A stretch of DNA of 64,000 nucleotides from an uncultured Aliarcobacter sp. (GCA_963664305.2 CAXXLV010000001.1:192001-256000); one strand, 5' to 3'; positions 14,578-36,145 are shown, counted from the first letter of the stretch. Notes: generated by a model not told the origin, from the sequence alone. Numbers and translations: made by a program.

Positions 14578-14700
14578 CTCCTTAGTAATATAATATATTT
14601 ATATCTAAGTATATAGCTTTTTCAAGATATTGTCTATTGTACTTAGGTGATAGAAGATAAATAAAAGAAGCCATAGAAAAAGAAGGCAGAAAGCGGGGCA

Positions 14701-14755
14701 AAAAAAAAGCTTCTGCTAAAAAGAACTTAAAGAAGTTCAAATTAGCAAAAGCTTT
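14701..14755 (-). terminator. rRNA operon terminator
   Basis: Long hairpin aaagcttttgctaa..gaactt-aagttc..ttagcagaagcttt followed by a T-run on the minus strand, just 3' of the 5S gene. Confidence 0.75.
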
Positions 14756-14769
14756 GAAAAAAACTCAAG

Positions 14770-14886
14770 AGCTGGCAGCGGCCTACGTTTCCACCAGGGG
14801 ACCCGGCAGTATTATCGGCGATGAAGTGCTTGACTTCCAGGTTCGGAATGGGACTGGGTATTTCCACTTCTCTATAGCCACCAGCA
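14770..14886 (-). rRNA. rrf: 5S rRNA
   Basis: Minus strand TGCTGGTGGCTATAG...CCCATTCCGAAC...GCCGATAATACT...GTAGGCCGCTGCCAGC with pairing ends. Confidence 0.97.
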
Positions 14887-15034
14887 AAGTTGAGTAAAGA
14901 AGATATTATAAAAAATATACTCTTCACTCAACTCGTTTAGGAGTTAAGAAAAAATAATGTTAAAGTCTTTTCACAATATATACTAAATATAAGAAATATA
15001 TTTAATAAGATAGTAAACCAAAGAATTGTTTAAA

Positions 15035-17945
<2,911 letters not shown>

Positions 17946-18241
17946 TAAATAGAGTTAAACTCTATCGCTTTTTGATAATATTCTTTGGCTACTATCTTAT
18001 TAAACATATTATTTAAAATATATCCAATAAAATAATGTTGTGTTCTATCTAATTTCTTAGATATGAAATTTTTTTTGTTTTAAATTATTTAACATTTCTG
18101 TTATCTAATTCTTACGAAAAAATTAAAGACTTTAACATTATATTTTTAAATATCGTTTTGATTTTGAAAATCAAATATAAATTCAATCTCTTATTGAACT
18201 TATATTTAACTTTTAAATCAGATGAACTTATTAGTTATAGG

Positions 18242-18317
18242 TGGTGGAGAATAGCGGGATCGAACCGCTGACCTCCTGCGTGCAAAGCAGGCGCTCTCCC
18301 AGCTGAGCTAATTCCCC
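18242..18317 (-). tRNA. tRNA-Ala(TGC)
   Basis: GGGGAATTAGCTCAGCTGGGAGAGCGCCTGCTTTGCACGCAGGAGGTCAGCGGTTCGATCCCGCTATTCTCCACCA. Confidence 0.98.
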
Positions 18318-18348
18318 AACCTAAATTAATCTTTACTAGATTATTTAA

Positions 18349-18425
18349 TGGTGGGCCTATCAGGACTTGAACCTGAGACCTCACGATTATCAGTCGAGCG
18401 CTCTAGCCAGCTGAGCTATAGGCCC
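18349..18425 (-). tRNA. tRNA-Ile(GAT)
   Basis: GGGCCTATAGCTCAGCTGGCTAGAGCGCTCGACTGATAATCGTGAGGTCTCAGGTTCAAGTCCTGATAGGCCCACCA. Confidence 0.98.
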
Positions 18426-18506
18426 CTTTACTACCTATTTAAATAATCTTTATAAACCGAATATAAAATCTCTGGAAGTAAGAAACGAATCTTACTTCTC
18501 TCTCTG

Positions 18507-20024
<1,518 letters not shown>

Positions 20025-23483: not shown

Positions 23484-23783
23484 TTATTCTTCTTCCATAA
23501 CAGCTTTTAAAGGAAAGCCTTTTTCTCGAGCCATTGTTTTTACTTGTGCCACTTTTGTTGAAGCTATTTCATGAGTATAAGTTCCACATAACTCTTTTCC
23601 ATTATTATGAATATTAAGCATAATAACTGAAGCTTCATCTAATGATTTTCTAAATACTTTTACTAAAACATCTACTACAAAATCCATTGTTGAAAAATCA
23701 TCATTTAAAAGAAAAACATTATATTTCTTTGGCTCTTGTAAATCTAAATCATCATTTAATTCTATTTCTATTTCATTACTCAC
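23484..23783 (-). CDS. clpS: ATP-dependent Clp protease adaptor ClpS
   Basis: [24 protein letters not shown]. Start moved to GTG 23783 (AAAGG upstream). Confidence 0.95.
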
Positions 23784-23798
23784 TTCAAACCTTTGTTT

Positions 23799-23840
23799 TG
23801 ATAAAATCTCATTTTTAATAAAAAACAACCTATTATAACA
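23799..23840. promoter_or_regulatory. Face-to-face extended -10 promoters for bioD (+) and clpS-clpA (-)
   Basis: TGATAAAAT on + at 23799-23807; TGTTATAAT on - at 23840-23832. Confidence 0.55.
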
Positions 23841-23854
23841 AAAAAGAGATAATT

Positions 23855-24490
23855 ATGAAAAAAGATATCAAATATTATATAAACAAATCAATATTTATTA
23901 GTGCAACAAATACTGATGTTGGTAAAACTTATGCATGTGAAAAGTTTTTAAAATTTTTTGCAAAAGCTGGTTTAAGAGTTGGTTATTTTAAACCTTGTGA
24001 AACAGGAGTTATTGATAAACCACTAGATGGTTCAAAAATGTTTGAACTAACAAAAGAGTTAAATAAAGATTTTGAAAATGTAACTTTAAATGATGTTGTT
24101 CCATATCAATTTAGACTTCCTGCAGCTCCTTATGTTGCATCAAAAGATACTATTATAGATATAGAGTTTTTAAAAGAGAAAAAAAAATATCTACAATCTT
24201 TTTGTGATATTTTAATTATTGAAGGAGCAGGAGGACTTATGGTTCCTGTAAAAGAAAACTTATTTATGATTGATTTAATAAATATATTTGAAAGTGAAGC
24301 ATTTTTAATCACTCCTTCAAAACTTGGATGTATAAATGACACCCTACTCTCATGTGAAGCTTTAAAAAATAGAAATATTGATTTTGAATTTTTTATAAAT
24401 CTATTTCAAGATATAGATACATTTGATGAAGTTTCAAAACCATTTTTAATTGACTATTTTGGTGAGTTAAATTTCTTACAAAATTTATAA
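23855..24490 (+). CDS. bioD: Dethiobiotin synthase
   Basis: ATNTDVGKT, FKP.ETG, PAAP, IEGAGGLMVP, LGCIND. Confidence 0.95.
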   Translation: MKKDIKYYINKSIFISATNTDVGKTYACEKFLKFFAKAGLRVGYFKPCETGVIDKPLDGSKMFELTKELNKDFENVTLNDVVPYQFRLPAAPYVASKDTIIDIEFLKEKKKYLQSFCDILIIEGAGGLMVPVKENLFMIDLINIFESEAFLITPSKLGCINDTLLSCEALKNRNIDFEFFINLFQDIDTFDEVSKPFLIDYFGELNFLQNL

Positions 24491-24497
24491 AAACTAG

Positions 24498-24528
24498 AAA
24501 AATTGGAAAATTTTTCCAATTTTTTTTT
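24498..24528 (+). terminator. Palindrome/terminator after bioD
   Basis: aaaaattggaaaa-t-ttttccaattttt followed by a T-run. Confidence 0.6.
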
Positions 24529-24798
24529 AATTTACGATTTTTTTAGTCTTAATTTTCACTAGTTTTTTAATACTTTTTTACATTTTTTTCACACAACTTT
24601 AAGTTTTCTTTCCCTAACTTTAGGGTTTTATTAGAGTTTTTTAATTCTAAACTTAAATTTATTTACTATTTCAAAAGACATAAAAACAATTCATTTTAAA
24701 TTGTGTATAAATTCTGTATTAGTTTTCATGTATAATATTACGTTTACTAAACATGGAACAAATAGCATTAAAATCAAATTATGAAAGGTAGATAAAAA

Positions 24799-25929
24799 AT
24801 GACTTCTGCAATAGATTTATCTAAATTAACAGCAAATGATGATTTAACACCAATTTTAGGTGGATATTGGCCTGGTATCCAAATTTATTACCCACCAATT
24901 AAATTCAATCCATTAGATGGAACATATGAGAGTATGGAACAAGCAAAACTAAGATTACAAAAACACGCTTATAAAACAAAAGCTCATACTGTATTATTTG
25001 ACTTAGAAGATGGATGTAGACAAAAAGCTATGTCAAGAGAATTATTAATTCAAGAGTTACCAAAATTTCCTGAAAGAAATTTTCAAATAGCTGTAAGAAT
25101 AAATCCATTCAGAACTGATGAGTATGAAGAAGATTTAAAAATGTTAAAACAAATTCACCAATATATAGATGTTATCGTTTTAGCAAAAGCTGGAGAAGTT
25201 TATGGTTCAGCTGAAATCAGAGATTTATCTTCTTGGTTAGTATCTATTGGAAGTAAATTAACTATTCAACCAATCGTAGAGCATCCAAAATCTTTACAAA
25301 TTGCTGATAGATTAATGGAACATTCAACTGTTAAACACATCGTATTTGGTATTCACGATTTTTCAAAAGCAATGGCTTATAAAATCACACCAAAAGGATG
25401 GATTGATGAATTAGAAACTTTCTTTAATATGCTTACAATGGAAGCAAGAATTAAAGGGAAAGGAGTTATCGGAGGAGTTGAAGTTATGTTAACACCTCAT
25501 TCATTACCAGATTCTTGTGTTGAGAAAAAAGATATTAGAAGATGGTTAGATTTACATGGTGACGAAGCTAGTAGACATGTTTATGCTCATGCAATCAGAG
25601 AAAATGCAATGGGATTAACTGGAAAACAAGTTATTACTCCAAATCATATTAATGTTTGTAAAGTTGCATTTACACCAAGTCCAAATGAAATTGCAAAAGA
25701 TGTTTCTATCTTAAAAGCTGCAATTGATGCTGATGCATTATTAAGTGGAGCTATTAGATATGAAGGTGAGATGTTAGATCCACCAATGTTCGGTAAATCT
25801 CTACAAAATATCTTAAGAGCTTATGCTTTAAGAAGTTTAGAAAAAGAAGATGAACTATTTGCATTATCTGTATTAAATAGAATGCCAATTCATACGTTTA
25901 AAGAAAACTGGCCATACGGTCAACTGTAA
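24799..25929 (+). CDS. CitE/malyl-CoA lyase-like (HpcH/HpaI aldolase/citrate lyase family) protein #1
   Basis: VLFDLEDG, AVRIN, IVEHP, FGIHDF, GKQVITP.H, C-terminal EMLDPP: all expected catalytic/metal residues present; carries insertions relative to typical CitE. Confidence 0.85.
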   Translation: MTSAIDLSKLTANDDLTPILGGYWPGIQIYYPPIKFNPLDGTYESMEQAKLRLQKHAYKTKAHTVLFDLEDGCRQKAMSRELLIQELPKFPERNFQIAVRINPFRTDEYEEDLKMLKQIHQYIDVIVLAKAGEVYGSAEIRDLSSWLVSIGSKLTIQPIVEHPKSLQIADRLMEHSTVKHIVFGIHDFSKAMAYKITPKGWIDELETFFNMLTMEARIKGKGVIGGVEVMLTPHSLPDSCVEKKDIRRWLDLHGDEASRHVYAHAIRENAMGLTGKQVITPNHINVCKVAFTPSPNEIAKDVSILKAAIDADALLSGAIRYEGEMLDPPMFGKSLQNILRAYALRSLEKEDELFALSVLNRMPIHTFKENWPYGQL

Positions 25930-25948
25930 TTTCGTAAGGAGATTTATT

Positions 25949-28468
25949 ATGAGTGAAACAATTAAAATAGAAGTACCTGAATTTTTAAACATTGGGGTGG
26001 CTTGTACATCAGCACATGTTGGAACAGCAAAAGAAAACAATATTGCGATGGTTATTGAAGATGATAAACTAGGAACTGATGAAATAACTTATAAAGAGTT
26101 AGCAAAAAAATCTGACCAAGTTTGTAATTTCTTTACGGGAATTGGACTAGAGCCAAGAGATAGAGTATTAGTTTGTTTAAAAAACTCTTTAGCATACCCT
26201 ATTTCATTTTTTGGAACTATGAAAGCTGGAATTATTGCAGTACCTACTTCAACACTTTTAAGTGGTAGTGAAGTTAAATATCTTGCTGAAGATTCTCAAG
26301 CAAGAGCAATTGTATTAAGTGCTACTATGTATGAAAACTTAGTTCCATATTTAGAAAATTTAGATAATTTAAAAACTATAGTTGTTGCAGGAATTGATAG
26401 TGTTGAAAATCTTAAAAAACCAAAAGATATTAATGTTTATTCATTGAATGAAATTTTCAAAAATACAGATGCAACACCAAATCATTATAATTCAAAATCA
26501 GGTGAACCTGCGTATTTAGTATATACATCAGGAACAACTGGTTATCCAAAAGGTGTTTTACATTCACATAGATCACTAATTGGAAGAAAACCAGCAACTG
26601 ATTATTGGTTTGATTTTAAAGAAAATGACAGAATCATGCACTCTGGTAAATTTAACTGGACATATGTTTTAGGTTCAGCTTTAATGGATCCATTATTTAA
26701 TGGTCATACAGTTATTGCTTACGAAGGTGCAAATGATGCTTCAACTTGGATTGATTTAATTAAAAAACACCAATGTACAATTTTCATTGGAGTTCCAACA
26801 ATTTATAGACAAATTATCCAAAAAACAGATTTCACTCTTGATGATTGTCCATCATTAAGATATTGTATGTCTGCTGGAGAGCATTTATCAGATGAAATGT
26901 TAGGATTATGGAGAGATAGATTTAAACAAGATATTTTCGAAGCAATTGGAATGTCTGAGTGTTCTTATTATATTTCTCACTCTAAATATAATCCAATTAG
27001 ACCAGGAAGTGCAGGATTCCCACAACCAGGACATATCGTAAAACTTTTAGACCCTGAAACTTTAGAAGAAGTTGGAGTTGAAGAAGAAGGTATGATTTGT
27101 ATTGGTGAAGATGATCCAGGTTTATTCTTAGAATATTGGCAATTAGAAGAAGAAACTGCAAAATCAAGACATGATGGATACTTCTTTACAGGAGATTATG
27201 CAAGAAAGGATAAAGATGGATATATCTGGTTTATCGGAAGAAAAGATGATATTATCAATACTTTTGGATTTAGAGTATCTCCACATGAAATCGAAAGAGT
27301 TGTAAAAACTCATGATGCAGTTGCAGATTGTGTTGCATTTGGTTTAGATATCGGTAAAGATAAAACAATAGTTGCAATTGCAGTTATTGGACATGAAGAA
27401 TTAAGTGAAGAAAAACAAGCAGAAGTTTTAGCATTTGCTCAAGCAAATCTTGCAAAATATAAAGCTCCAAAAGAGATTTTTGCAATGACTGATTATCCAA
27501 GAACAAAAAATGGAAAAGTTCTAAGAAAACAACTTGTTAAACAATTACATGAACAATATCACGCAATTGAAACAGGAACAAAAGTTGTTGAGTATAAAGC
27601 AAGAAGATCAATGTTATTTGTTCCTCCATATAACAAAAATAATGTTGAAAAAGCAAAAACAGTTTTAGCTGATAGTGTTATTTTTGATTTAGAAGCAATT
27701 TTACAAGAGCAAAGAGAACCTGCTAGACAAACTATCAAAGAAGTTTACAAAGATAGCGGTGCTAAATTTGGAGAAAGTGAAAGAGTTTTAAGAATTAATA
27801 ATCTTGGAAGTGAAGATATTAAAAAAGATTTAGAATTAGCTAAAGAGATTGAAATTGATGGATTATTATTCTCTAAAATTCAATCTAAAGAGGATGTTTT
27901 AGAAGCAGTTAAATTAATTGAAGAAGTAAATCCTAATTTAACTTTAATGATTATGATTGAAACTCCATTATCAGTTTTAAATATTCATGAAATTTGTGCA
28001 GCTAGTCCTAAAGTTGAAGTTGTGGTTGTTGGTTCAAATAAACTTGCAAACAGACTTCAAATTGATATCAAAAAAGGTTCAAAAGCGATGTTTAATTACT
28101 TATCGCAAATTGCCTTAGCTTCAAAAGCATATGGAAAAACTGTAATTGATGGACCACACTTTGATGTTCATGATGAATTTGCTTGTGAAGATTCAACAAA
28201 AGATGCATTTAATTTAGGATTTGATGGTAAATCATTAATTCATCCAATTCAAATTGAATATATCAATGATATCTTTACTCCAAAACAATCTGAAGTTGAA
28301 GATTATGAAAATATGATTGCAAAATATGAAGAAGCAGCTAAAGAAGGAAAAGAAGTTATTTTACATAATAATAGATTAGTTGACTCTTCTAAAATTAAAT
28401 GGGCAAGAAAAATGATTACATTGTATGAAACATACAAATCATTAGGTCAAAATTTATTTGGTAAATAA
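25949..28468 (+). CDS. Acyl-CoA synthetase (AMP-forming) fused to a C-terminal CitE-like domain
   Basis: ANL motifs YTSGTTGYPKG, IGMSE, TGD, GRKDD, PRTKNGK. From ~27602: RRSMLFVP, IFDLE, VLRIN, MIETP, GFDGKSLIHP. Confidence 0.9.
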   Translation: MSETIKIEVPEFLNIGVACTSAHVGTAKENNIAMVIEDDKLGTDEITYKELAKKSDQVCNFFTGIGLEPRDRVLVCLKNSLAYPISFFGTMKAGIIAVPTSTLLSGSEVKYLAEDSQARAIVLSATMYENLVPYLENLDNLKTIVVAGIDSVENLKKPKDINVYSLNEIFKNTDATPNHYNSKSGEPAYLVYTSGTTGYPKGVLHSHRSLIGRKPATDYWFDFKENDRIMHSGKFNWTYVLGSALMDPLFNGHTVIAYEGANDASTWIDLIKKHQCTIFIGVPTIYRQIIQKTDFTLDDCPSLRYCMSAGEHLSDEMLGLWRDRFKQDIFEAIGMSECSYYISHSKYNPIRPGSAGFPQPGHIVKLLDPETLEEVGVEEEGMICIGEDDPGLFLEYWQLEEETAKSRHDGYFFTGDYARKDKDGYIWFIGRKDDIINTFGFRVSPHEIERVVKTHDAVADCVAFGLDIGKDKTIVAIAVIGHEELSEEKQAEVLAFAQANLAKYKAPKEIFAMTDYPRTKNGKVLRKQLVKQLHEQYHAIETGTKVVEYKARRSMLFVPPYNKNNVEKAKTVLADSVIFDLEAILQEQREPARQTIKEVYKDSGAKFGESERVLRINNLGSEDIKKDLELAKEIEIDGLLFSKIQSKEDVLEAVKLIEEVNPNLTLMIMIETPLSVLNIHEICAASPKVEVVVVGSNKLANRLQIDIKKGSKAMFNYLSQIALASKAYGKTVIDGPHFDVHDEFACEDSTKDAFNLGFDGKSLIHPIQIEYINDIFTPKQSEVEDYENMIAKYEEAAKEGKEVILHNNRLVDSSKIKWARKMITLYETYKSLGQNLFGK

Positions 28469-28478
28469 GGAGTTTAAT

Positions 28479-29537
28479 TTGTCTAAAATAAATATGGGTA
28501 ATTTTTTTGAAGATTTTTCAATCGGTCAAAAAATAGTTCATCCACTTCCTAGAACAATAAGTGAAGGAGATGTATCTTTATACATCGCTTTCACTGGTTC
28601 TAGATTTGCTCTACACTCTTCTGATGTAGTGGCAAAGGAAATGGGATATGACAAAAGACCAATTGATGATATTTTAATGTTCCATTTAACATTTGGTAAA
28701 TCTGTACAAGATATCTCTTTAAATGCAATTGCAAATTTAGGATATGCAGAGATGGCTTTCCCAAATCCTGTATATGTTGGAGATACAGTTTCTATGACTT
28801 CAACAGTAATTGGATTAAAAGAGAATTCAAATGGAAAAAGTGGAGTTGTTTACGTTCACTCTATTGGTGTAAATCAAAATGGTGCTGTTGTACTTGATTT
28901 CAAAAGATGGGTAATGGTTCATAAAAAAGACCACTCTACTTTAAGTGGAGTTAATGAAGTTCCAACTTTTGCAAAAACAACACCTATTTCACAAATTAAT
29001 ATTCCAACTATTAAATGTGTTGATACAGATTCAACTGGTGGAAAATATTTCTTTGAAGATTATGTTGAAGGTGAAAGATTAGACCATCCAGAAGGAATTA
29101 CAGTAGATAATAGTGACCACACTTTAGCTACTAAGTTATATCAAAACAATGCTAAAGTACATTTCAATGACCATATGATGAAAAGCACACCAATGGGGCA
29201 AAGATTAATGTACGGTGGGATTATTATTTCAATGGCAAGAGCTATTTCATTTAATGGTTTACAAAATGCTCAATGGGTATGTGCTATAAATAGTGGAGCT
29301 CACGCAAACCCTACATATGCAGGTGATACTATTTATGCTTATACTGAAATTTTAGAAAAAATTGAAGTAAATAGAGATGATATTGGATTACTAAGAGTTA
29401 GAACAATTGGATTAAAAAATACTGAACCAAAAGAAGTTTTAAATCCAAAGAGTGAAGATGGTAAATATTTACCAAATGTTGTACTTGATTTAGATTACAC
29501 TATTGTAATTCCAAAAAAAGTTACTGAAAAAAAATAA
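28479..29537 (+). CDS. mch: Mesaconyl-C1-CoA hydratase / beta-methylmalyl-CoA dehydratase (double MaoC hot-dog)
   Basis: GNFFEDF, PRTI, FH.TFGKSV.DISLNA.ANLGYAE, VIGLKENSNG.SGVV, RWVMV, and a second hot-dog with YQN.AKVHF...YGG: a close match to Mch as I recall it. Start moved to TTG 28479 behind AAGGAG. Confidence 0.8.
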   Translation: MSKINMGNFFEDFSIGQKIVHPLPRTISEGDVSLYIAFTGSRFALHSSDVVAKEMGYDKRPIDDILMFHLTFGKSVQDISLNAIANLGYAEMAFPNPVYVGDTVSMTSTVIGLKENSNGKSGVVYVHSIGVNQNGAVVLDFKRWVMVHKKDHSTLSGVNEVPTFAKTTPISQINIPTIKCVDTDSTGGKYFFEDYVEGERLDHPEGITVDNSDHTLATKLYQNNAKVHFNDHMMKSTPMGQRLMYGGIIISMARAISFNGLQNAQWVCAINSGAHANPTYAGDTIYAYTEILEKIEVNRDDIGLLRVRTIGLKNTEPKEVLNPKSEDGKYLPNVVLDLDYTIVIPKKVTEKK

Positions 29538-29569
29538 AACAAATTTAATTTTAACAAAAAGGAAAAAAT

Positions 29570-30553
29570 ATGACACACCCAAGCGAAGCTTTATTTGAAA
29601 ATGGTAAATCTTTACCAATTATCCCTACTTGTGAACACTTTGCAGGAAGCGAAAAGCTAATCCTAAAAGGTTTTGAAATGCAAAAAAAATTAGGTCCAGT
29701 TTTTGATATTACTTGTGACTGTGAAGATGGTGCTGAAACTGGTAAAGAAGTTGAACATGCTCAAATGATTGTTAGAGTTGTTAATTCTGCAGAAAATCCT
29801 TATGCAATGGCTGGAACTAGAATTCATGACCATTCACACCCAGATTGGAGACAAGATGTTGATATTTTAGTTCCAGGTGCAGGAGAAAAATTAGCATATA
29901 TTACATTACCAAAATCAACTTGTTATGAAGATGCAAAAACTCAAATTGAATATATTCAAAAAGTGGCTAAAGAAGCTGGTATTTCAAGAGAAATTCCAAT
30001 TCACGTATTAATTGAAACTCATGGTGCATTACAAGATGTAGAAAAAATTGCTACATTACCTTGGTTACAAGTTTTAGATTTTGGATTAATGGACTTCGTT
30101 TCAGGATACCAAGGAGCAATTCCAGCTATTAATATGAGATCTCCAGGTCAATTTGATCATAGATTAATTGGTGCTGCAAAAGCAAGAGTTGCACAAGCAG
30201 CTATCCAAAATAAAGTTATTCCTGCACACAACGTAACATTAGATTTAAAAAACCCATACCAAACTTATAAAGATGCAGAAAGAGCAAGAAATGAGTTCGG
30301 ATTTATGAGAATGTGGTCAATTTACCCAACACAAGTACAAGCTATCGTTGATGCAATGAAACCAGACTTTACAGAATTAGAAGCTGCTCAAAACATTTTA
30401 ATTAAAGCACAAGATGCTGAGTGGGGACCAATCCAATATGATGGTGAATTACACGATAGAGCAACTTATAGATACTTCTGGGAATTAGTTCAAAGAGCTA
30501 AATTCTCTGGTGCTAAATTATTTGATGAAACTGAAAAAAGATTCTTCGCTTAA
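29570..30553 (+). CDS. CitE-like (HpcH/HpaI aldolase/citrate lyase family) protein #3
   Basis: CEHFAGSEKL, TCDCEDGA, GTRIHD, LPK, LIETHGAL, FGLMDFVS, MWSIYP, ELHDRA.YRY; catalytic residues intact. Confidence 0.88.
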   Translation: MTHPSEALFENGKSLPIIPTCEHFAGSEKLILKGFEMQKKLGPVFDITCDCEDGAETGKEVEHAQMIVRVVNSAENPYAMAGTRIHDHSHPDWRQDVDILVPGAGEKLAYITLPKSTCYEDAKTQIEYIQKVAKEAGISREIPIHVLIETHGALQDVEKIATLPWLQVLDFGLMDFVSGYQGAIPAINMRSPGQFDHRLIGAAKARVAQAAIQNKVIPAHNVTLDLKNPYQTYKDAERARNEFGFMRMWSIYPTQVQAIVDAMKPDFTELEAAQNILIKAQDAEWGPIQYDGELHDRATYRYFWELVQRAKFSGAKLFDETEKRFFA

Positions 30554-30558
30554 TATTT

Positions 30559-30593
30559 TAAACATAAGCCCTTTGGGGGCTTTTGTTTCTTTT
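30559..30593 (+). terminator. Intrinsic terminator of the CitE/mch operon
   Basis: aaacataagccc-tttg-ggggcttttgttt GC-rich hairpin plus T-rich tail. Confidence 0.8.
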
Positions 30594-30700
30594 CTAAACA
30601 AACAATTTCTACATAAATTTTTAGGTATATCAAAACTAAACACTTTTTATAAATATTCATATTTTTATTAGTTTAAAAAAGTCTATTTTCATAAGTGCAT

Positions 30701-30709
30701 TGGTATAAT
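30701..30709 (+). promoter_or_regulatory. Extended -10 promoter of the fumarate hydratase gene
   Basis: TGGTATAAT about 30 bp upstream of the ATG, with AAGGA RBS. Confidence 0.65.
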
Positions 30710-30738
30710 AATTGAATTTCTAAGCAAAAAGGAAAAAA

Positions 30739-32232
30739 ATGAGCAAAAAAATTACAGAACAAGATATTATAGACTCAGTTGCTTCAGCATGTCAATATAT
30801 TTCGTTTTACCATCCAGAAGATTTCGTAAAAGGTATGGTTGAGGCGTATGAAAAAGAACAATCTGAATCAGCTAAAAATGCAATCGGACAAATTTTAATT
30901 AACTCTAAAATGTGTGCAATGGGTCACAGACCACTTTGCCAAGATACAGGAAGTGTTAATATTTTCGTAAGAGTTGGATTAAAAGCTAACTTAGACATTT
31001 CAAAAAATTTAGAAGATGTTTTAAATGAAGGTGTTGCAAAAGGTTATACTGACCCAGACAATACTTTAAGATATTCAGTTGTTGCTGATCCAGCAGGAAA
31101 AAGAACAAACACAAAAAATAATACTCCAGCAGTTATCCATGTTACAGTTGATAATTCTGATGAATTAGATATCACAGTTGCAGCTAAAGGTGGAGGTTCT
31201 GAGAACAAATCTAAATTTGCTGTATTAAATCCTTCTGATTCAGTTTATGACTGGGTTATGGCTAATGTAAGAGAAATGGGAGCTGGATGGTGTCCTCCAG
31301 GAATCTTAGGAATCGGAATTGGTGGAAATCCAGAAAAAGCAATGCTTTTAGCAAAAGAGTCTTTAATGGGTCATGTTGATATTCATGAACTACAAGCAAG
31401 AGGTCCTCAAAATGCTTTAGAAGAATTAAGATTAAAACTTTATGAAGATATCAATAAAGTTGGAATTGGTGCACAAGGTCTTGGAGGATTAACAACTGTT
31501 TTAGATGTTAAAATCTTAGATTACCCTTGTCACGCAGCTTCATTACCAGTAGCTATGATTCCAAACTGTGCAGCAACAAGACACATTCACTTTAAATTAA
31601 AAGGTGATGGACCAGCTGTATTTAAAAAACCATCTTTAGATTTATGGCCAGATATCAAACTTCCAATGGATACTATTAAAAGAGTAAATATTGCTGATTT
31701 AACTAAAGAAAACTTATCTCAATTTAAATCAGGAGATACTTTATTATTATCTGGAAAAATTTTAACAGCAAGAGATGCTGCTCACAAAAAAATCGTTGAG
31801 TACAAAAATGCGGGGAAACCACTTCCAAATGGTGTTGACTTAAAAGATAAATTTATCTACTACGTGGGACCTGTTGATCCAGTTAGAGATGAAGTAGTAG
31901 GACCTGCGGGACCAACAACATCTACAAGAATGGATAAATTTACTAAAGATATGATGGAAATTGGTATCATGGGTATGATTGGTAAAGCTGAAAGAAAACA
32001 ACCAACAATTGATTTAATTAAAGAGTACAAATCTATTTATTTAATTGCAACTGGTGGAGCAGCTTATTTAATTTCTCAATCAATTAAAGGTGCAAAAACT
32101 TTAGCATTTGAAGAACTAGGTATGGAAGCAATTTATGAATTTGAAGTTGAAGATATGCCAGTTACTGTTGCAGTTGATACAGAAGGAAATTCTATTCATA
32201 CAACAGGTCCAGCTAAATGGAGAACTATCTAA
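30739..32232 (+). CDS. fumA: Class I (Fe-S) fumarate hydratase
   Basis: RPLCQDTG, KGGGSENKS, GWCPP, CHAASLP, CAATRH, ARDAAH, GPTTSTRM, IGK. Confidence 0.92.
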   Translation: MSKKITEQDIIDSVASACQYISFYHPEDFVKGMVEAYEKEQSESAKNAIGQILINSKMCAMGHRPLCQDTGSVNIFVRVGLKANLDISKNLEDVLNEGVAKGYTDPDNTLRYSVVADPAGKRTNTKNNTPAVIHVTVDNSDELDITVAAKGGGSENKSKFAVLNPSDSVYDWVMANVREMGAGWCPPGILGIGIGGNPEKAMLLAKESLMGHVDIHELQARGPQNALEELRLKLYEDINKVGIGAQGLGGLTTVLDVKILDYPCHAASLPVAMIPNCAATRHIHFKLKGDGPAVFKKPSLDLWPDIKLPMDTIKRVNIADLTKENLSQFKSGDTLLLSGKILTARDAAHKKIVEYKNAGKPLPNGVDLKDKFIYYVGPVDPVRDEVVGPAGPTTSTRMDKFTKDMMEIGIMGMIGKAERKQPTIDLIKEYKSIYLIATGGAAYLISQSIKGAKTLAFEELGMEAIYEFEVEDMPVTVAVDTEGNSIHTTGPAKWRTI

Positions 32233-32238
32233 TCTAGT

Positions 32239-32262
32239 TTACAAAGGGGATACCCTTTGTAA
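32239..32262 (+). terminator. Hairpin after fumarase
   Basis: ttacaaaggg-gata-ccctttgtaa perfect 10-bp stem. Confidence 0.7.
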
Positions 32263-32371
32263 CACTTTCCTAAAATAATCCTTATATCAACAAACTATAT
32301 TTCTTTTTTGACTTTTTCAAGACTAACTTTATGCTATTGTTCCAACCAAAGAAAATATTATAGGAAATAAT

Positions 32372-33211
32372 ATGAATTTATTAGAAGATTTAAAAGACTA
32401 TTTAGGCTTTGCTGTAGCAGGTAATTTTGCAAATCACTTAGGTGAAGCAGGAGAAGCTGATGAATTTTCTGTAATAAAAACAAAAGAAAAAGATGCACCA
32501 AAGGGGATGTTCCCTTTTTATATAAAAGGACATAATAGTTTTTTAGGAACTTATCCAATTTGTGATGAAATTATCTTAACTCATGGTAGAGAAAATGATA
32601 ATTTACAAGTTGAAGCTGAAGTTGCATTAATCTGCGATTTTATTTATGAAAATGATAAAGTTATTGATATAGTACCAAAATATTTTTCAGCATTTAATGA
32701 CTGTTCAATTAGAATTCAAGATGGAAATAAACTTAGTACTAAAAAGAATTGGGGAACGAATACAAAAGGAATTTCTCAAGATATTATCGAAATTGATAAT
32801 TTCTCACCAAAAGGTGTTTTAAGTAAATATCATATTTCATCATTTATAAAAAGAGATGGTATTGTTTATGATTATGGAACTACAAGTGCCGTAAAATCAT
32901 ATAGCTACTTCTTTGAACAATTAAAAGATTGGATGATTGATATTTTAAATACTCAAGAAGATTGTGGACCACTTGAAGAATTAACACAATTCTTAAAAGT
33001 TGCAGCTAAAGATTCAAAAGGTATTTTAATAGCAGCAGGTGCAACAGCATATACAGAGTTTGGAAAACATAACTTTCTAAAAAAAGGTGATGAGATTTTT
33101 GTTTATGTTTATAATGCACACGCACATAGTTTTAACGATATTATGAATGATATGTGTGGAATGGATACTTATTTAGGTCAGTGTTCAAAACTTCATCAAA
33201 TAGTTCAATAA
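32372..33211 (+). CDS. DUF5718-type protein with fumarylacetoacetate-hydrolase (FAH) superfamily motifs
   Basis: VAGNFANH...E, QVEAEVAL, AFNDCSIR, KKNW, AGAT, FLKKGD.I. Confidence 0.65.
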   Translation: MNLLEDLKDYLGFAVAGNFANHLGEAGEADEFSVIKTKEKDAPKGMFPFYIKGHNSFLGTYPICDEIILTHGRENDNLQVEAEVALICDFIYENDKVIDIVPKYFSAFNDCSIRIQDGNKLSTKKNWGTNTKGISQDIIEIDNFSPKGVLSKYHISSFIKRDGIVYDYGTTSAVKSYSYFFEQLKDWMIDILNTQEDCGPLEELTQFLKVAAKDSKGILIAAGATAYTEFGKHNFLKKGDEIFVYVYNAHAHSFNDIMNDMCGMDTYLGQCSKLHQIVQ

Positions 33212-33235
33212 AAGATAGATTTTCTATCTTTTATT
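33207..33235. terminator. Bidirectional terminator overlapping both stop codons
   Basis: aataaaagataga-ttt-tctatcttttatt perfect 13-bp stem. Confidence 0.75.
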
Positions 33236-36145
33236 AAGTTTAGACTCAATATATAAAACATCATTTAAACTATCAAATACTTTTATAGTTCCCTCTTCTA
33301 TTTCACTTGCTGTTTTTCTTAGGTGTTGATTTTCTATTTTATTTGCATTACTAGTTACATACTCTTGAACTTTTTTATGTACATTTTCATGATTTTGTTT
33401 TAAAGTATTCCACTCTTTCATTTTCGTAAATTCTTCATTTTGTACTTCACAAGAACTAATCCATTTCCCTAAATTACAAGATTTACAATCAACTACTGTA
33501 CAATCTTCATAACTATCTAATGTTTTAAAATAACCCTTTTTAAAATTTATGTGGTCATTTTTATATTTTGATATCTCTTTCATCAAATTAATATTTTCAA
33601 CCATTTCATAATATTTTTCATCAATTTTTGATAGAGATGTAATCTCTAGTAATCTGCTTGAAAGTTTTGAAACTTCACTTGATAATAAATCAATATTTGA
33701 AGCTGTCATTGCATTTTTTTGTGTTGCACTATCTAATCTTGAAATAGTGTCATTTATTTGAATAATTCCTGTTTCTTGCTCTTTACTAAATTGAGTTACA
33801 CTATCTATAATCTCTTTTGTTTGAGAGATTTTTGAACTAAGATTTTCATAACCTTTTATCATATCATCAGCAATAACTTTTCCTTCATTTGATTTTAAAC
33901 TTGCACTTTCAACCAAATTTTTAATCTCTCTTGCTGCATCTGCACTTCTACTTGCTAAGTTTCTAACTTCTGCTGCAACAACAGCAAAACCTTTTCCAGC
34001 TTCACCAGCAGTTGCTGCTTCTACTGCTGCATTTAAAGATAAAATATTTGTTTGGAAAGCAATTTGGTCAATTACAGTTATAGCTTCATTGATTGCTTTA
34101 ACTTTTTCATTTATCTCATCCATTGATAAAGAAGTCTTTTTAGCTGCTTTACTTCCATGTGTAGAAGCATCATTTAATTCATCTGCAATTTGTAACATTT
34201 GATTCATATTTTCATTATTATTTTTAATATTTGCCGTAATTTGTTCAAGTGCAGCTGAACTTTGTTCTAGAGAACTTGCTTGTTCTGTTGATGAAACTGC
34301 TAATTCAGTTGATGAATTTGCTAAAACTTTTGTATTTTTTTCTAAATCATTACCAGCATTTGTTATCATTGCAATTAATTCTGAAGATGATTGACCAAGA
34401 AGAACAGTAGAAGAACAAAGTGTTCCAAAATCTCCGTACATTCCTCTTGTATGAACTTCATCTAATCTAAATTTATAATTTCCTTGAGAATAGTTATTTA
34501 ACAATAAATTTAAACTATCAATTTTTAGTTTAGTTCTATTTATCATTTTATTTATAATTTCAACTAAAGAGGCTAACTCTTTAGATGAAGCTTTTGTTTT
34601 GATAGAATATTCAAAGAAACCATTATTTACTTTTTCCATAATATCAGTAATTTCAATAACAACTTTTTTATCATTTTCCATTATTTGTTCAATTTTTTCA
34701 ACTTGAATGTTCATATTTTGAGTCATTAAAGCAAACTCATCTTTTCCTTCAATTTGATTTAATCTAATTTCATCTTTTTCTCTCATAGAATAAGAGAAGA
34801 ATTCATTTAAATTATCTTGGAATTTTTTAATAGAATTTGAAATTTTATTTGTCATTAATGTAATTACAATAAATAATATTACAAACATAACTACTAATAC
34901 CAATAAGAATAAAATCACTTGATTATCTAATGTTGAAACATTTGATTTAATATCAGTTATCATATCATCAACAATTTGATTTTTTATTTTTTCCAAAGAA
35001 TCTAATCTTTTTGAAGATGATTCTTCCCATTTTAAACTATCTGAACCATAAATATTTTTTGATAAAGTTTCAATTGCTCTTAAAGTTTTTGTATCCATCT
35101 CTTTTGTTTCATTTAATCCACTGTTATCATATGCTTTTGCCATATATGCATCAATAGTTGATTCAATTACATTTAATAACTCTATCTCTTCTTTTGAAAC
35201 ACCTTCTAATCTTTTATATTCTTTTAGTGCTCTTGAAATTTTTGTATGACTTTTTTGAATTTTATTTAAAAGATTTTCATCTTGATTTATCACAAAATCT
35301 TTATAAAAATGAATTAATCCGCCAAATCCAAATGCTTCTTTAATTGAAGATAATAAAACATCTTTTTCTACTTTTGATATTAAAATAGCTCTAAATTTAT
35401 CAACTTCTTTAAAACTCTCTGTTTGAGCTTCGTTTTTTAATAACTCAAGTTCTGCTGCTGTAAGATTTTTTATTAAAACTTCAATATATGCGTTTTGAGA
35501 TGCAACAAAAGATATAAAATCATTATAATTACTATTTGAAATAGAACCTTGTTCAAAAATATTTTTTACAATATTTTTTTCACTGTAAGATTTTTCAATA
35601 ACATTTACTAAAGATACATAAGCTTGAGAAGATTTTGATAACTCTTTACTATTTGAATAAATAAGTAAATCATCAAAAAATGAGATTAAATTTGAACAAT
35701 TTTTATCATAATAACTAACTAACTCACTTATACTGATTTTTAAATCTATTGTTTTTTTTCTATTTTCAGCTAATGCTTCTAAATCTTTTTTATATAGATT
35801 TATTTTTTCTAAAAGATTATTATCATCTTTTATTAATTTAAAACTTTCTACAAAAGTATTTAGTAATTGTAGATTTTCATCACTATTTTTAATTTGAGTT
35901 AATAACTCATCTTTTTTATTTTTACCATAACTATTCAAATACAATATTGATAGTTCTCTTTCTTTTTGAAAACTAGTTAGTAAAGTAGAGATTTTAACAG
36001 TAAACTCTATATAACTAGAAGTTCTCGCCATATTTCTCTCTTTCTCAATTTTTGTTGAGATTAGAATAGAAGATAAAATAAATATTGTAATTAAAGGTAA
36101 AAGCAATATTAATAATATCTTATTTTTTAGTTTTAGATTATTCAT
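33224..36145 (-). CDS. Methyl-accepting chemotaxis protein with NIT-like periplasmic sensor and C-terminal CZB domain
   Basis: TM1, FQKERELS (NIT-like), TM2, hairpin tip [39 protein letters not shown] (DH..FK, CNLGKW, HENVH). Confidence 0.92.

Follow-up and report, generated by a model that had tools for sequence, protein, structure and literature searches.

A ligase, CitE and Mch operon in an uncultured Aliarcobacter and its genomic link to the methylcitrate cycle

In a 64,000-nucleotide stretch of DNA from an uncultured Aliarcobacter sp. (GCA_963664305.2, CAXXLV010000001.1:192001-256000; hereafter the window), we found four same-strand genes (24799-30553, + strand) with a single promoter region and a single terminator. 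Their products, in order, are a CitE-like protein of divergent sequence, an AMP-ligase fused to a CitE domain (ligase::CitE), an orthologue of Mch and another CitE-like protein, and the genes are best read as one transcription unit for CoA-ester chemistry around mesaconyl-CoA. Tentatively, and giving it not quite an even chance, we propose that the ligase would drive a C5 acid by way of mesaconyl-CoA and beta-methylmalyl-CoA to propionyl-CoA and glyoxylate, coupled to the methylcitrate cycle. Neither the operon nor the idea is new, both having been in print since 2007; added here are the genome-wide absence of rival pathways, a distribution confined to PrpB-positive genomes, 17 loci in which the module runs into prpB, and the loss of a metal-ligand Asp from 39 of 39 fused CitE domains.

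Operon anatomy and gene products

The operon and its surroundings comprise the following features:

24660..24798, + strand: promoter/leader region with an AT-rich conserved block, TGTGTATAAA (~24702-24711), TGTATAAT (24729-24736, in the 308-nt region upstream of gene 1) and, read from the sequence, the gene 1 ribosome-binding site GAAAGGTAG (24784-24792)
24799..25929, + strand: gene 1, 376 aa, long divergent CitE-like protein (Pfam HpcH_HpaI, 7.3e-8)
25949..28468, + strand: gene 2, 839 aa, ligase::CitE fusion; ribosome-binding site TAAGGAG before 25949, read from the sequence
25949..27604, + strand: gene 2 N-terminal AMP-forming acyl-CoA ligase domain (AMP-binding 1.9e-71, AMP-binding_C)
27605..28468, + strand: gene 2 C-terminal CitE domain, short canonical type with a remodelled metal site (HpcH_HpaI 3.3e-35)
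28458..29537, + strand: gene 3, mechanical ORF, 359 aa; ribosome-binding site AAGGAG at 28467-28472, read from the sequence
28479..29537, + strand: gene 3 from its probable start, predicted Mch, i.e. mesaconyl-C1-CoA hydratase / beta-methylmalyl-CoA dehydratase, double hot-dog (PDB, Pfam MC_hydratase)
29570..30553, + strand: gene 4, 327 aa, long CitE-like protein, 3qqw/3r4i subfamily (Pfam HpcH_HpaI 3e-9; PDB); ribosome-binding site AAAGGAA before 29570, read from the sequence
30566..30592, + strand: intrinsic-terminator-like hairpin and T run (7 pairs, 4 of them G-C, loop of 3, T-rich tail)
30739..32232, + strand: class I (Fe-S) fumarase (Fumerase and Fumerase_C) with its own promoter-like site TGGTATAAT
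32372..33211, + strand: DUF5718 protein (PF18985, 4e-94)

The four-gene operon with strong ribosome-binding sites and an upstream region of ~300 bp, as called in the first-pass annotation, was recovered here, the upstream region measuring 308 nt. The terminator is likewise present and closes the operon, with the hairpin proper at 30566-30582 followed by the T run (30559-30593 in the first-pass annotation). The block at ~24660-24740 is the best-conserved intergenic stretch when eight relatives are compared, and may act as an operator. Overall, the promoter scan yielded no excess over its shuffles (50 found, 53.8 expected), and the operon promoter was called because of its position and its conservation in relatives. 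An Rfam search of 23500-33500 gave no matches at E<=0.1, which leaves the leader block without an Rfam family and speaks against a riboswitch or other known RNA there. RNA contigs gave little cover over 23800-24750 and 32359-33300; this should not be taken as silence, since the 92% likeness filter favors conserved genes.

The clearest assignment was obtained for gene 3, which homology strongly supports as an Mch orthologue with predicted hydratase activity. Its nearest solved relative, PDB 4e3e, presumably a Chloroflexus protein, was matched over the full length (1.5e-114, residues 9-354 on 3-351), followed by 8hgn ('Beta-methylmalyl-CoA dehydratase'; 9.6e-103, residues 10-353 on 2-348), which we take to be an Mch enzyme of Chloroflexus or Roseiflexus. 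Pfam domains MC_hydratase (1e-21, covering 13-310) and MaoC were also identified. The protein has the layout of Mch, i.e. one ~350-aa chain made up of two MaoC-like hot-dog halves that aligns with solved Mch proteins over its whole length, and tblastn found this type of hydratase in a single copy in the genome. Its probable start is an in-frame TTG at 28479, 6 nt past the AAGGAG, giving 352 aa, as judged from that spacing, from the length of relatives (347-357 aa) and from PDB alignments that begin at residue 9. Genes 2 and 3 are therefore separated by 10 nt, without overlap, and the remaining gaps are 19 nt (genes 1/2) and 32 nt (genes 3/4).

No NCBIfam model reached its cut-off in the ligase domain of gene 2, whose nearest PDB chains were short-/medium-chain, benzoate, 4-hydroxybutyrate and malonyl-CoA ligases. 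Nothing else in the genome scores as high against the Acs model (224 bits, cut-off 725). In the fused CitE domain, where the HpcH_HpaI match spans residues 553-766, the closest NCBIfam models were citE (148 bits) and RipC_Ccl (116 bits, cut-off 375), both below their cut-offs, and PDB matches were found to 5ugr (5.4e-25) and CLYBL (1.7e-20). A search for further fusions in a representative library returned one full-length fusion representative (P0241) and fragments among its best 150 matches; these were dominated by NRPS proteins, and little can be drawn from them.

Gene 4 matched 3qqw (1.3e-137) and 3r4i (3.4e-99), solved structures titled only '(putative) citrate lyase', as well as the Rhodobacter sphaeroides malyl-CoA lyase 4l9y (6.6e-14), while scoring 39 bits against RipC_Ccl. 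It is the most conserved part of the operon and adjoins Mch in all cases. Of 8000 candidates scored, 7989 were relatives at E<=1e-30. The genes of the module are widespread, a single scan of species-representative genomes having confirmed 591 relatives of gene 4. In Leptospira loci gene 4 occurs alone; the one locus scanned had uninformative neighbors. Gene 1, situated directly upstream of the ligase in every case, is far more divergent: it passed the HpcH_HpaI cut-off (32.4 bits, cut-off 25), scored far under the cut-offs of citE (56 bits) and RipC (50 bits), and in the PDB resembled CLYBL (2.9e-9) and the Mcl 5ugr (2.4e-8) weakly. It also has 'ITP' in place of the 'IHP' of its relatives. Its AF2 model was of low confidence (mean pLDDT 63.6; under 50 for residues 185-292), and the best fold matches were all CitE-type CoA lyases (TM ~0.4-0.5), which would support the superfamily only and is of no help on the substrate.

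Domain profiles thus agree with the three CitE-family domains, the AMP-forming ligase and the double hot-dog Mch recognized earlier. All three CitE domains matched the HpcH_HpaI profile and solved family members, they are the only HpcH/CitE matches in the genome, and all three proteins score below every curated family cut-off. The catalytic set of CitE-type enzymes consists of an Arg in the RIN motif, a Glu and an Asp that bind the metal and are spaced by 26-28 residues, and an acidic residue at the C-terminal end. It is present in gene 1 (Arg100, Glu161, Asp187 and Asp327, invariant among 15 sequences) and in gene 4 (where Arg, Glu, Asp and the C-terminal Asp are conserved in 21/21 aligned sequences), and is incomplete in the fused domain, which when aligned to CLYBL has a Lys at the GxxD Asp position. 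This second metal-ligand Asp is replaced in all 39 fused forms and kept in 21 of 23 unfused ones. The fused domain is also the fastest-evolving part of the operon, with the lowest identity in 27 out of 38 loci. For these two reasons it cannot be taken for granted that all three domains work as a lyase, synthase or thioesterase, and the earlier assignment of three lyase-type activities is shaky.

Rival pathways across the genome

The genome is 99.96% complete, and the absences reported below hold for all of it but 8000 bases. Isocitrate lyase is absent genome-wide, the sole ICL-family match being a partial one in PrpB, and malate synthase gave no matches; the genome therefore lacks a glyoxylate shunt, in keeping with the suggestion of a route without isocitrate lyase. 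The ethylmalonyl-CoA pathway is lacking as well, the best genome match to Ccr reaching 49.4 bits (cut-off 378.55) and MM_CoA_mutase, for B12 acyl-CoA mutases, none. Methylaspartate ammonia-lyase (MAAL_C) and family III CoA-transferase (CoA_transf_3) also gave no genome matches, and thus, although genes like glmS, glmE and glmL for glutamate mutase are present elsewhere in the genome, the methylaspartate cycle is incomplete. The absent CoA-transferase (Mct) likewise leaves no glyoxylate-assimilation part of the 3-hydroxypropionate bi-cycle. Consequently, no complete ethylmalonyl-CoA or methylaspartate pathway was found in the genome that would explain Mch, which is left without another pathway to serve. 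The absence of the usual partners, first noted for the window, holds genome-wide for Ccr, the B12 mutases, the family III CoA-transferase and the ammonia-lyase, but not for glutamate mutase.

Glutamate mutase was considered as a required feeder and rejected because its co-occurrence is loose (GlmE in 37 of 48 module genomes versus 17 of 33 module-less ones; five out of five same-genus relatives carry the module without GlmE) and the ammonia-lyase is missing. A module that as a general rule offsets a broken TCA cycle was also rejected: SucC was not found in this genome, and A. butzleri is likewise reported without SucC (PMC2147049), but SucC is present in 7 of the 15 module-bearing genomes sampled across the phylum. 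The methylcitrate cycle genes prpB, prpC, acnD and prpF are present on another contig than the operon. With no canonical Acs or PrpE above cut-off in the genome, this cycle is without an obvious propionyl-CoA supplier.

The RipABC (Ict/Ich/Ccl) system of itaconate degradation resembles the operon in pairing a MaoC-type hydratase with a CitE-type lyase for C5 CoA esters. RipB_Ich was matched by the N-terminal hot-dog of gene 3 (2.2e-34), and RipC_Ccl by the CitE proteins. These similarities, together with the wastewater and compost origins in the sequencing-run labels and the fumarase/mesaconase that serves mesaconate use in Burkholderia (PMC4682846), would fit a breakdown of C5 dicarboxylates from outside the cell (mesaconate, citramalate, itaconate or methylsuccinate) to propionyl-CoA and glyoxylate or to acetyl-CoA and pyruvate, with the ligase replacing the CoA-transferase and no closed cycle. 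We consider this quite unlikely, as the scores fall far under the equivalog cut-offs (RipB_Ich 118.9 of 340 bits; RipC_Ccl 50, 116 and 39 of 375), no CoA-transferase is found, gene 3 has the full length and double hot-dog of an Mch, unlike the single-domain Ich, and the operon here holds no transporter or regulator genes. Scavenging of rare C5 acids is also hard to expect of a 1.3-Mb Methylophilaceae genome that keeps the module.

Earlier descriptions and related systems

The operon had been put forward in the first-pass annotation as a candidate undescribed pathway, which proved wrong on two counts. Firstly, Miller et al. (2007, PLoS One, PMC2147049) describe ab1917-ab1921 of A. butzleri RM4018, i.e. 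CitE, Acs::CitE, enoyl-CoA hydratase, CitE and class I fumarase, with gene order and domains like those found here, which places the two in one operon type. A citramalate/3-hydroxypropionate-like route was proposed there for the cluster, linking pyruvate and acetyl-CoA with glyoxylate and propionyl-CoA and drawn alongside the methylcitrate cycle, nearly the same route as the one considered here. Aliarcobacter butzleri fusion proteins are 90% identical to gene 2 over 100% of its length. RM4018 belongs to another species, has a larger genome (2.78 Mb) and, according to the same paper, has the FumC that is absent here; the paper offers neither biochemistry nor an analysis of distribution or active sites.

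Secondly, the module is listed in the 'methylcitric acid cycle' (MCC) cluster of Methylophilaceae as cyl1, maoC, cyl2, cyl3, prpE and fum (2014, PMC4109929). In Methylotenera this cluster is highly expressed, and its role was stated to be unknown by the authors (PMC4109929; Vorobev et al. 2013, PMC3728764). Homologs of all five functions occur there, with identities of ~60% (gene 1), ~60% (ligase), ~36% (CitE), ~53% (Mch) and ~67% (gene 4), and the orders CitE-Mch-gene 4 and gene 1-ligase are kept. In contrast to the operon here, however, ligase and CitE are encoded separately, in two operons that diverge, the unfused CitE retains the metal-ligand Asp, and the module is merged into the prpBCD operon, whereas here the prp genes lie on another contig. 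Beyond the cited papers, the literature searched yielded no later work on ab1917-ab1920, on citramalate in butzleri or on propionyl-CoA plus glyoxylate in Methylotenera, and no mesaconate- or citramalate-CoA ligase.

Among related pathways, the haloarchaeal methylaspartate cycle runs from mesaconate over mesaconyl-C1-CoA and beta-methylmalyl-CoA to propionyl-CoA and glyoxylate (PMC8307300), thus sharing with the proposed route its intermediates, the Mch step and the conversion of glyoxylate and acetyl-CoA to malate. It differs in that mesaconate comes from glutamate mutase together with methylaspartate ammonia-lyase, of which the latter was not found here; in activation by a succinyl-CoA:mesaconate CoA-transferase instead of an AMP-forming ligase; and in passing propionyl-CoA through methylmalonyl-CoA, for which there is no mutase here. 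The glyoxylate-assimilation cycle of the 3-hydroxypropionate bi-cycle (Chloroflexus Mcl-Mch-Mct-Meh) also contains Mch, and Mcl-type lyases are the nearest characterized relatives of gene 4, but instead of Mct the operon has a ligase and three non-orthologous CitE subfamilies. The citramalate cycle proposed for Rhodospirillum rubrum (Ivanovsky et al. 1997), as set out in PMC8307300, follows the same logic, i.e. acetyl-CoA and pyruvate to citramalate, mesaconate, mesaconyl-CoA, methylmalyl-CoA and finally glyoxylate and propionyl-CoA. There propionyl-CoA returns via succinyl-CoA, here it would do so via the methylcitrate cycle, and according to that review the R. rubrum enzymes from citramalate to mesaconate and from citramalyl-CoA to citramalate were not known.

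Link to the methylcitrate cycle and the proposed route

Using gene 1 as the module marker, we found 48 genomes with both module and PrpB among 81 Arcobacteraceae, none with the module only, seven with PrpB only and 26 with neither. Among 301 Campylobacterota, 15 out of 15 module genomes had PrpB, against 56 of 301 overall, and in two genera the single genome with either gene had both; as these counts come from related genomes, they overstate independence. Furthermore, gene 4 is directly followed by prpB in 17 out of 80 related loci, all betaproteobacterial, and prpC and prpD come next where the contig continues, with sdhAB, malic enzyme, gene 1 and the ligase on the opposite strand. By predicted function, these 17 loci hold the full enzyme set for the proposed cycle. 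The conservation mapping called for earlier placed the module in Arcobacteraceae and other groups; in the Arcobacteraceae and Campylobacterota samples it occurred only in PrpB-positive genomes (48/48, 15/15). A producer of toxic propionyl-CoA should need the methylcitrate cycle and a consumer should not, and the module is therefore read as a producer; this strict link strengthens the citramalate-cycle-like route put forward in the first-pass annotation, which remains the leading reading.

The class I fumarase behind the operon is a candidate mesaconase, as class I fumarases hydrate mesaconate (PMC4682846). It is a single-copy gene by tblastn and the sole fumarase of the genome, the only class II fumarase-family member being AspA. 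Many Arcobacteraceae and Sulfurospirillum loci have it beside the module, and in two Thiobacillus loci it runs divergently from the module. The adjacency may nevertheless be a matter of housekeeping, since the gene is the only fumarase and lies behind the terminator.

In the favored route, for which we infer substrates, direction of flux and the division of steps among the CitE proteins, this fumarase would make mesaconate from (S)-citramalate, and the ligase of gene 2 would activate a C5 dicarboxylate, most likely mesaconate. Mch would hydrate mesaconyl-C1-CoA to beta-methylmalyl-CoA, and a CitE-type lyase, most likely gene 4 as it is Mcl-like and beside Mch, would split this into propionyl-CoA and glyoxylate. 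PrpC, AcnD, PrpF and PrpB would then take propionyl-CoA to pyruvate and succinate. Glyoxylate and acetyl-CoA would be joined through CitE-type chemistry, so assigned because the genome has no malate synthase, and another CitE-type protein would remake citramalate from pyruvate and acetyl-CoA. The sum would be a variant of the citramalate cycle that converts acetyl-CoA to glyoxylate and malate independently of isocitrate lyase. The scheme in the cluster description of Miller et al. (2007, PMC2147049), arrived at independently, speaks for this; speaking against it are the reported lack of growth of A. butzleri on acetate, propionate and citrate ('data not shown', in that same description), the intervention of the Mch step between two activities whose fusion suggests consecutive steps, a ligase that could equally be the propionate or acetate ligase of the cell, and the cost of ATP to AMP with thioesters lost.

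Consecutive steps would be better accommodated if the pathway ran in reverse, assimilating glyoxylate and propionyl-CoA in the manner of the 3-hydroxypropionate bi-cycle's second cycle, though with no CoA-transferases. After CitE condensation, Mch dehydration to mesaconyl-CoA, hydrolysis of the CoA ester and formation of citramalate by the fumarase, the ligase::CitE protein would re-activate citramalate and cleave citramalyl-CoA to acetyl-CoA and pyruvate; in a variant, a propionate-CoA ligase activity would feed a fused condensing domain. The ligase and a short Ccl/CitE-like domain are indeed fused, or adjacent in unfused lineages; citE and RipC_Ccl are the closest NCBIfam models of that domain; the genome has no other Acs/PrpE; the ligase was labelled prpE in Methylophilaceae (PMC4109929); and the conversion of glyoxylate and propionyl-CoA to pyruvate and acetyl-CoA was also weighed in PMC2147049. 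We nevertheless hold this direction to be unlikely. A propionyl-CoA consumer would stand in place of the methylcitrate cycle, but the module was never found without PrpB (0/48, 0/15) and is co-operonic with prpBCD in the 17 loci. Nor is there an evident source of glyoxylate, given that isocitrate lyase is absent and that the GlcD-like gene at 10627-12015 falls below cut-off (519.7 bits, cut-off 567.9) without glcE or glcF alongside. Moreover, a mesaconyl-CoA thioesterase would be needed in addition, and the metal-ligand Asp is missing from the fused CitE domain.

PrpB dependence is a shared weakness of a further scheme, in which glyoxylate derives from C4 acids. Here the fumarase would give malate from fumarate, the ligase would make malyl-CoA, the fused or neighboring CitE would release glyoxylate and acetyl-CoA, and Mch with gene 4 would dispose of glyoxylate with propionyl-CoA. 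This is the second scenario in the cluster description of Miller et al. (PMC2147049), where A. butzleri is reported to grow on fumarate and malate but not on acetate; it would give the ligase-lyase fusion consecutive steps, and the fumarase is adjacent. With no known AMP-forming malate-CoA ligase among the ligase matches, and a degenerate metal site in the fused domain, we regard it as improbable.

A wider form of the favored producer route appears doubtful to us, i.e. that the module, the methylcitrate cycle, succinate dehydrogenase/fumarate reductase, fumarase and malate dehydrogenase/malic enzyme together make up a complete, undemonstrated central cycle. Such a cycle would oxidize acetyl-CoA to glyoxylate, allowing assimilation or burning to CO2 via malate, and would be independent of isocitrate lyase and 2-oxoglutarate dehydrogenase. 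It would be common to Arcobacteraceae, some Sulfurospirillum, sulfur-oxidizing Gammaproteobacteria, Thiobacillus and Methylophilaceae, and the fused CitE would be a non-lyase partner of the ligase, in hand-over or a thioesterase-like role.

Should the producer route be true, it would represent a further natural way from acetyl-CoA to glyoxylate and C4 acids without isocitrate lyase, settle whether a citramalate cycle exists anywhere, show what the strongly expressed 'methylcitric acid cycle' cluster does in Methylotenera, and provide the first named mesaconate- or citramalate-CoA ligase. The value of the module lies in its being a compact, directly testable set of five proteins.

Lastly, the DUF5718 protein has no NCBIfam family and no sequence relative in the PDB, where none of the matches had an E below 0.19, and its gene is a conserved downstream neighbor in Arcobacteraceae, found either after the operon or after the fumarase.

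Operon structure and transcription

Domain identification against Pfam and NCBIfam bore out the domains that the first-pass annotation had claimed for four consecutive genes, and a Shine-Dalgarno-like site was present at each of them, in line with the strong ribosome binding sites described there. The features of the operon and the fumarase gene downstream are the following.

24799-25929, plus strand: gene 1, weak but significant HpcH_HpaI/CitE match (7.3e-8, Pfam)
25949-28468, plus strand: gene 2, AMP-binding ligase (1.9e-71) fused to an HpcH_HpaI domain (3.3e-35, residues 553-766)
28458-29537, plus strand: gene 3, mechanically called ORF, MC_hydratase/MaoC double hot-dog
29570-30553, plus strand: gene 4, weak CitE match (3e-9)
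30566-30592, plus strand: hairpin and T run that end the operon
30739-32232: class I fumarase, single copy in the genome

The mechanical start of gene 3, a TTG at 28458, makes it overlap with gene 2. An in-frame TTG at 28479, situated 6 nt past an AAGGAG, is more likely to be the start, because it agrees with how long the relatives are and with where the PDB alignments begin, and the intergenic gaps then become 19, 10 and 32 nt. Within the 308 nt upstream of gene 1, the motif TGTATAAT is found at 24729-24736, while a generic promoter scan was overall not above chance. Conservation of this spacer among eight relatives was confined to the final 140 nt ahead of the gene 1 start codon, and no Rfam family matched the region upstream of and around the operon. 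An approximately 80-nt block upstream of the -10 box (24660-24740; …CTTAAATTTATTT.CTATTT…ACAT.AAAACAATTCATTTTAAAT..TGTATAA…) is almost identical among relatives in a spacer that is otherwise unalignable, and could represent an operator or tandem promoters.

Contigs from four runs deposited as RNA, which come from three studies on wastewater and compost, cover 24751-32358 at a likeness of at least 92% and span the junctions of genes 1/2, 2/3 and 3/4, with hardly any contigs on 23800-24750. These lend weak support to transcription in close relatives, as contigs cannot prove a single transcript and the libraries may contain DNA. The contrast in contigs between the operon and bioD may merely reflect the lower conservation of the latter (67-74% identity).

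Protein identities and CitE active sites

The gene 3 product aligned end to end with PDB 4e3e (1.5e-114), which we take to be a Chloroflexus protein, and with 8hgn (9.6e-103), titled beta-methylmalyl-CoA dehydratase; given these full-length alignments, it is clearly an Mch orthologue. The product of gene 4 falls into a highly conserved subfamily for which two structures are available from structural genomics, 3qqw (1.3e-137) and 3r4i (3.4e-99; titled Bxe_B2899 of Burkholderia xenovorans), and its closest characterised relatives are malyl-CoA lyases (4l9y, 6.6e-14). The most divergent of the CitE-type proteins is that of gene 1, for which the AF2 model was poor (pLDDT 63.6) and the fold matches were CitE-type CoA lyases only. 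The CitE domain fused to the ligase in gene 2 is of the short canonical type; its nearest NCBIfam models were citE (148 bits) and RipC_Ccl (116 bits), both far under their cut-offs, and its nearest solved structures were Mcl 5ugr and CLYBL. The ligase itself matched no NCBIfam equivalog, its nearest relatives being short- and medium-chain, aryl and malonyl-CoA ligases.

Catalytic residues were placed by alignment to 5ugr and CLYBL. Genes 1 and 4 retain the Arg of the RIN/RIH motif, the C-terminal Asp and a Glu spaced 26 residues from an Asp; in CitE proteins, these residues have catalytic and metal-ligand roles. In the fused domain, Lys takes the place of the GxxD Asp, and the other three residues (Arg, Glu and C-terminal Asp) are retained. 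Among 63 sequences compared, the metal-ligand Asp was missing from all 39 fused forms (K in 20, N in 8, T in 6, S in 2, and R, Q or H in the others), which have an invariant Asn directly ahead of the replaced position, and was kept in 21 of 23 unfused forms, the exceptions being L079 and the split L025. At the position of the C-terminal acid, every fused form has Asp, and 21 of the 23 unfused ones have Glu; three fused gammaproteobacterial forms have additionally lost the Glu ligand. Moreover, in 27 of 38 loci the fused domain was less well conserved than any other component, and fused and unfused CitE share only 34-39% identity, compared with 50-68% for other parts of the module. The fusion was thus accompanied by remodelling of the active site, possibly into that of a non-lyase.

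Distribution and association with the methylcitrate cycle

The operon is real and conserved. Mapping its conservation, as the first-pass annotation had proposed, revealed the module across Arcobacteraceae, Sulfurospirillum, Gammaproteobacteria, Thiobacillus and Methylophilaceae. The 120 best of 3220 matches to the fusion protein had 82-95% identity, and their named sources were Arcobacter, Aliarcobacter, Malaciobacter, Poseidonibacter, Halarcobacter and one MAG labelled Sulfurovum. A scan of species-representative genomes with an alignment of gene 4 yielded 591 confirmed relatives, of whose loci the best 80 were inspected. Mch adjoins gene 4 in 63 of these, and an intact ligase::CitE fusion was found in 38 (Arcobacteraceae, Sulfurospirillum, Piscirickettsiaceae and other gammaproteobacterial MAGs, Chromatiales and Sedimenticolaceae). 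The fusion is split in two loci (L025 and L045), and ligase and CitE are separate genes in 22, from Pleionea, a gammaproteobacterial MAG, Thiobacillus, a betaproteobacterial MAG and Methylophilaceae. Three further loci are cut by contig ends. Throughout, two sub-units are constant: in one, gene 1 precedes the ligase, and the other has the order CitE-Mch-gene 4. In four MAG or long-read assemblies (L025, L045, L050 and L083) the fusion gene or Mch lies in two frames, which may be due to assembly frameshifts or real pseudogenes.

Gene 4 occurs alone in 14 of the 80 loci, namely 13 from Leptospira, Leptospiraceae and Spirochaetota and one from a Pseudomonadota MAG (L059), in which only about 170 bases of contig are left upstream of the gene. 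Since it stands alone in Leptospira-type genomes, gene 4 must have a function of its own. The spirochaete genes (L056, L060-L062, L064-L066, L070, L077, L087, L088, L090 and L092) are 67-70% identical, and their 9-kb flanks are devoid of Mch, ligase and other CitE genes; the neighbors in L061, the single spirochaete locus scanned, are unrelated (cytochrome c peroxidase, carbamoyltransferase and globin). Neighbors of the module outside Arcobacteraceae are acyl-CoA thioesterases, of the TesB-like type in Pleionea (L057:10071-10931) and of the 4HBT type in a Sedimenticolaceae MAG (L054:3592-3960), and, in Sulfurospirillum arcachonense, a divergent IclR regulator (L046:3161-3880).

In 17 of the 80 loci, prpB directly follows gene 4, and is itself followed by prpC and prpD if the contig continues, with a GntR-like gene, malic enzyme, sdh genes, gene 1 and the ligase on the opposite strand (one locus, L076, checked by NCBIfam and the remainder by blastp). 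Among 301 Campylobacterota genomes, gene 1 was found in 15, i.e. 12 of 15 Arcobacteraceae, the present genome (G000) and 2 of 11 members of a second family, and PrpB was above cut-off in 56, including all 15 with gene 1. A sample of 81 Arcobacteraceae comprised 48 genomes with both, none with the module only, seven with PrpB only and 26 with neither; two of the seven are 81-84% complete and belong to a genus that otherwise bears the module. In genera g62 and g63, either gene was present in a single genome, which has both. As the genomes are related, a Fisher test on the 81 overstates the association, and the real signal of co-occurrence is the nestedness and the co-variation within genera. Wherever the module was seen, the methylcitrate cycle was present too, and one large lineage has the module built into its prp operon.

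Partner enzymes and the candidate pathway

The window corresponds to G000:C1:192001-256000 in a genome of 2.78 Mb (99.96% complete, 8000 bases withheld), in which the only CitE-type matches are the three inside the operon. Absence of the usual partners, previously noted for the window, extended to the whole genome for Ccr (none above cut-off), MM_CoA_mutase, family III CoA-transferase and methylaspartate ammonia-lyase. Glutamate mutase, by contrast, is represented by a glmS/glmE/glmL-like cluster outside the window. The genome search found no malate synthase, no SucC and no Acs/PrpE above cut-off, the best Acs-like match being the ligase of the operon, and the sole match to the isocitrate lyase family was PrpB. 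The latter is encoded in an AcnD/PrpF-variant cluster of prpB, prpC, acnD and prpF, lacking prpE, on another contig (L012:6898-12936, i.e. G000:C2:1651898-1657936). Mch has no alternative pathway here in which it could act. The class II fumarase family is represented by AspA alone and the class I gene is single-copy, which therefore makes the latter the only fumarase, unlike in A. butzleri RM4018, reported to have FumC in addition (PMC2147049).

The glm-like cluster (L011:9321-13854, i.e. G000:C2:763321-767854) encodes glmS-like (135 aa), glmE-like (454 aa; PF06368, 1e-114) and glmL/MutL-like (394 aa) proteins and an AMP-ligase (523 aa), and lies directly 3' of monomeric icd, mdh and a small HMA-domain gene. 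GlmE is present in 54 of the 81 Arcobacteraceae sampled and in none of five same-genus relatives.

The best-fitting reading, which we hold tentatively and for which we infer all substrates and the direction, is the forward route. In this, a C5 acid, probably mesaconate formed from citramalate via fumarase, would be activated by the ligase, hydrated by Mch and cleaved, probably by gene 4, to propionyl-CoA and glyoxylate. Pyruvate would be returned via the methylcitrate cycle, and malate and citramalate would be formed through CitE-type chemistry, in a genome with neither malate synthase nor a dedicated propionate ligase. The main rival is flow in the reverse direction, which the fusion of ligase and lyase favors; the dependence on PrpB speaks against it, and we consider it unlikely. 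Catabolism of external C5 acids appears slightly less probable still, and a role in converting malate to glyoxylate the least probable of these.

The forward citramalate/mesaconyl-CoA scheme of the first-pass annotation thus stands as the best fit, but not its claim that operon and pathway are undescribed. Miller et al. 2007 (PMC2147049) list ab1917-ab1921 of A. butzleri as CitE, Acs::CitE, enoyl-CoA hydratase, CitE and anaerobic fumarase, and propose the steps mesaconyl-CoA synthetase, mesaconyl-CoA hydratase, beta-methylmalyl-CoA lyase, citramalate hydrolase and citramalate lyase, in a scheme that joins pyruvate and acetyl-CoA to glyoxylate and propionyl-CoA beside the methylcitrate cycle. 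With both composition and pathway idea in print, the finding is, as a prediction, not new; the literature searched contained no subsequent study of the operon. Miller et al. further mention, as data not shown, that neither acetate, propionate nor citrate supported growth of A. butzleri (PMC2147049). Beck et al. 2014 (PMC4109929) list the module within the Methylophilaceae "methylcitric acid cycle" cluster (cyl1, maoC, cyl2, cyl3, prpE and fum). For this cluster, Vorobev et al. 2013 (PMC3728764) describe high expression in situ, and call its role and metabolite unknown. The operon is compact and open to direct testing, and is a candidate for a central pathway that has yet to be proven.

Lastly, some other features of the window may be mentioned. 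A DUF5718 protein (32372-33211, 279 aa), for which neither an NCBIfam family nor a sequence relative in the PDB was found, is encoded 3' of the operon or fumarase in Arcobacteraceae loci. About 13 kb upstream of the operon, a GlcD-like FAD oxidase (10627-12015; 519.7 bits against a glcD cut-off of 567.9), with no glcE or glcF beside it, possibly acts as a dehydrogenase of D-lactate or of another 2-hydroxyacid. The region 14000-20000, with short ORFs only and a G+C content of 0.40-0.46 compared with about 0.25-0.30 elsewhere, looks like an rRNA operon.
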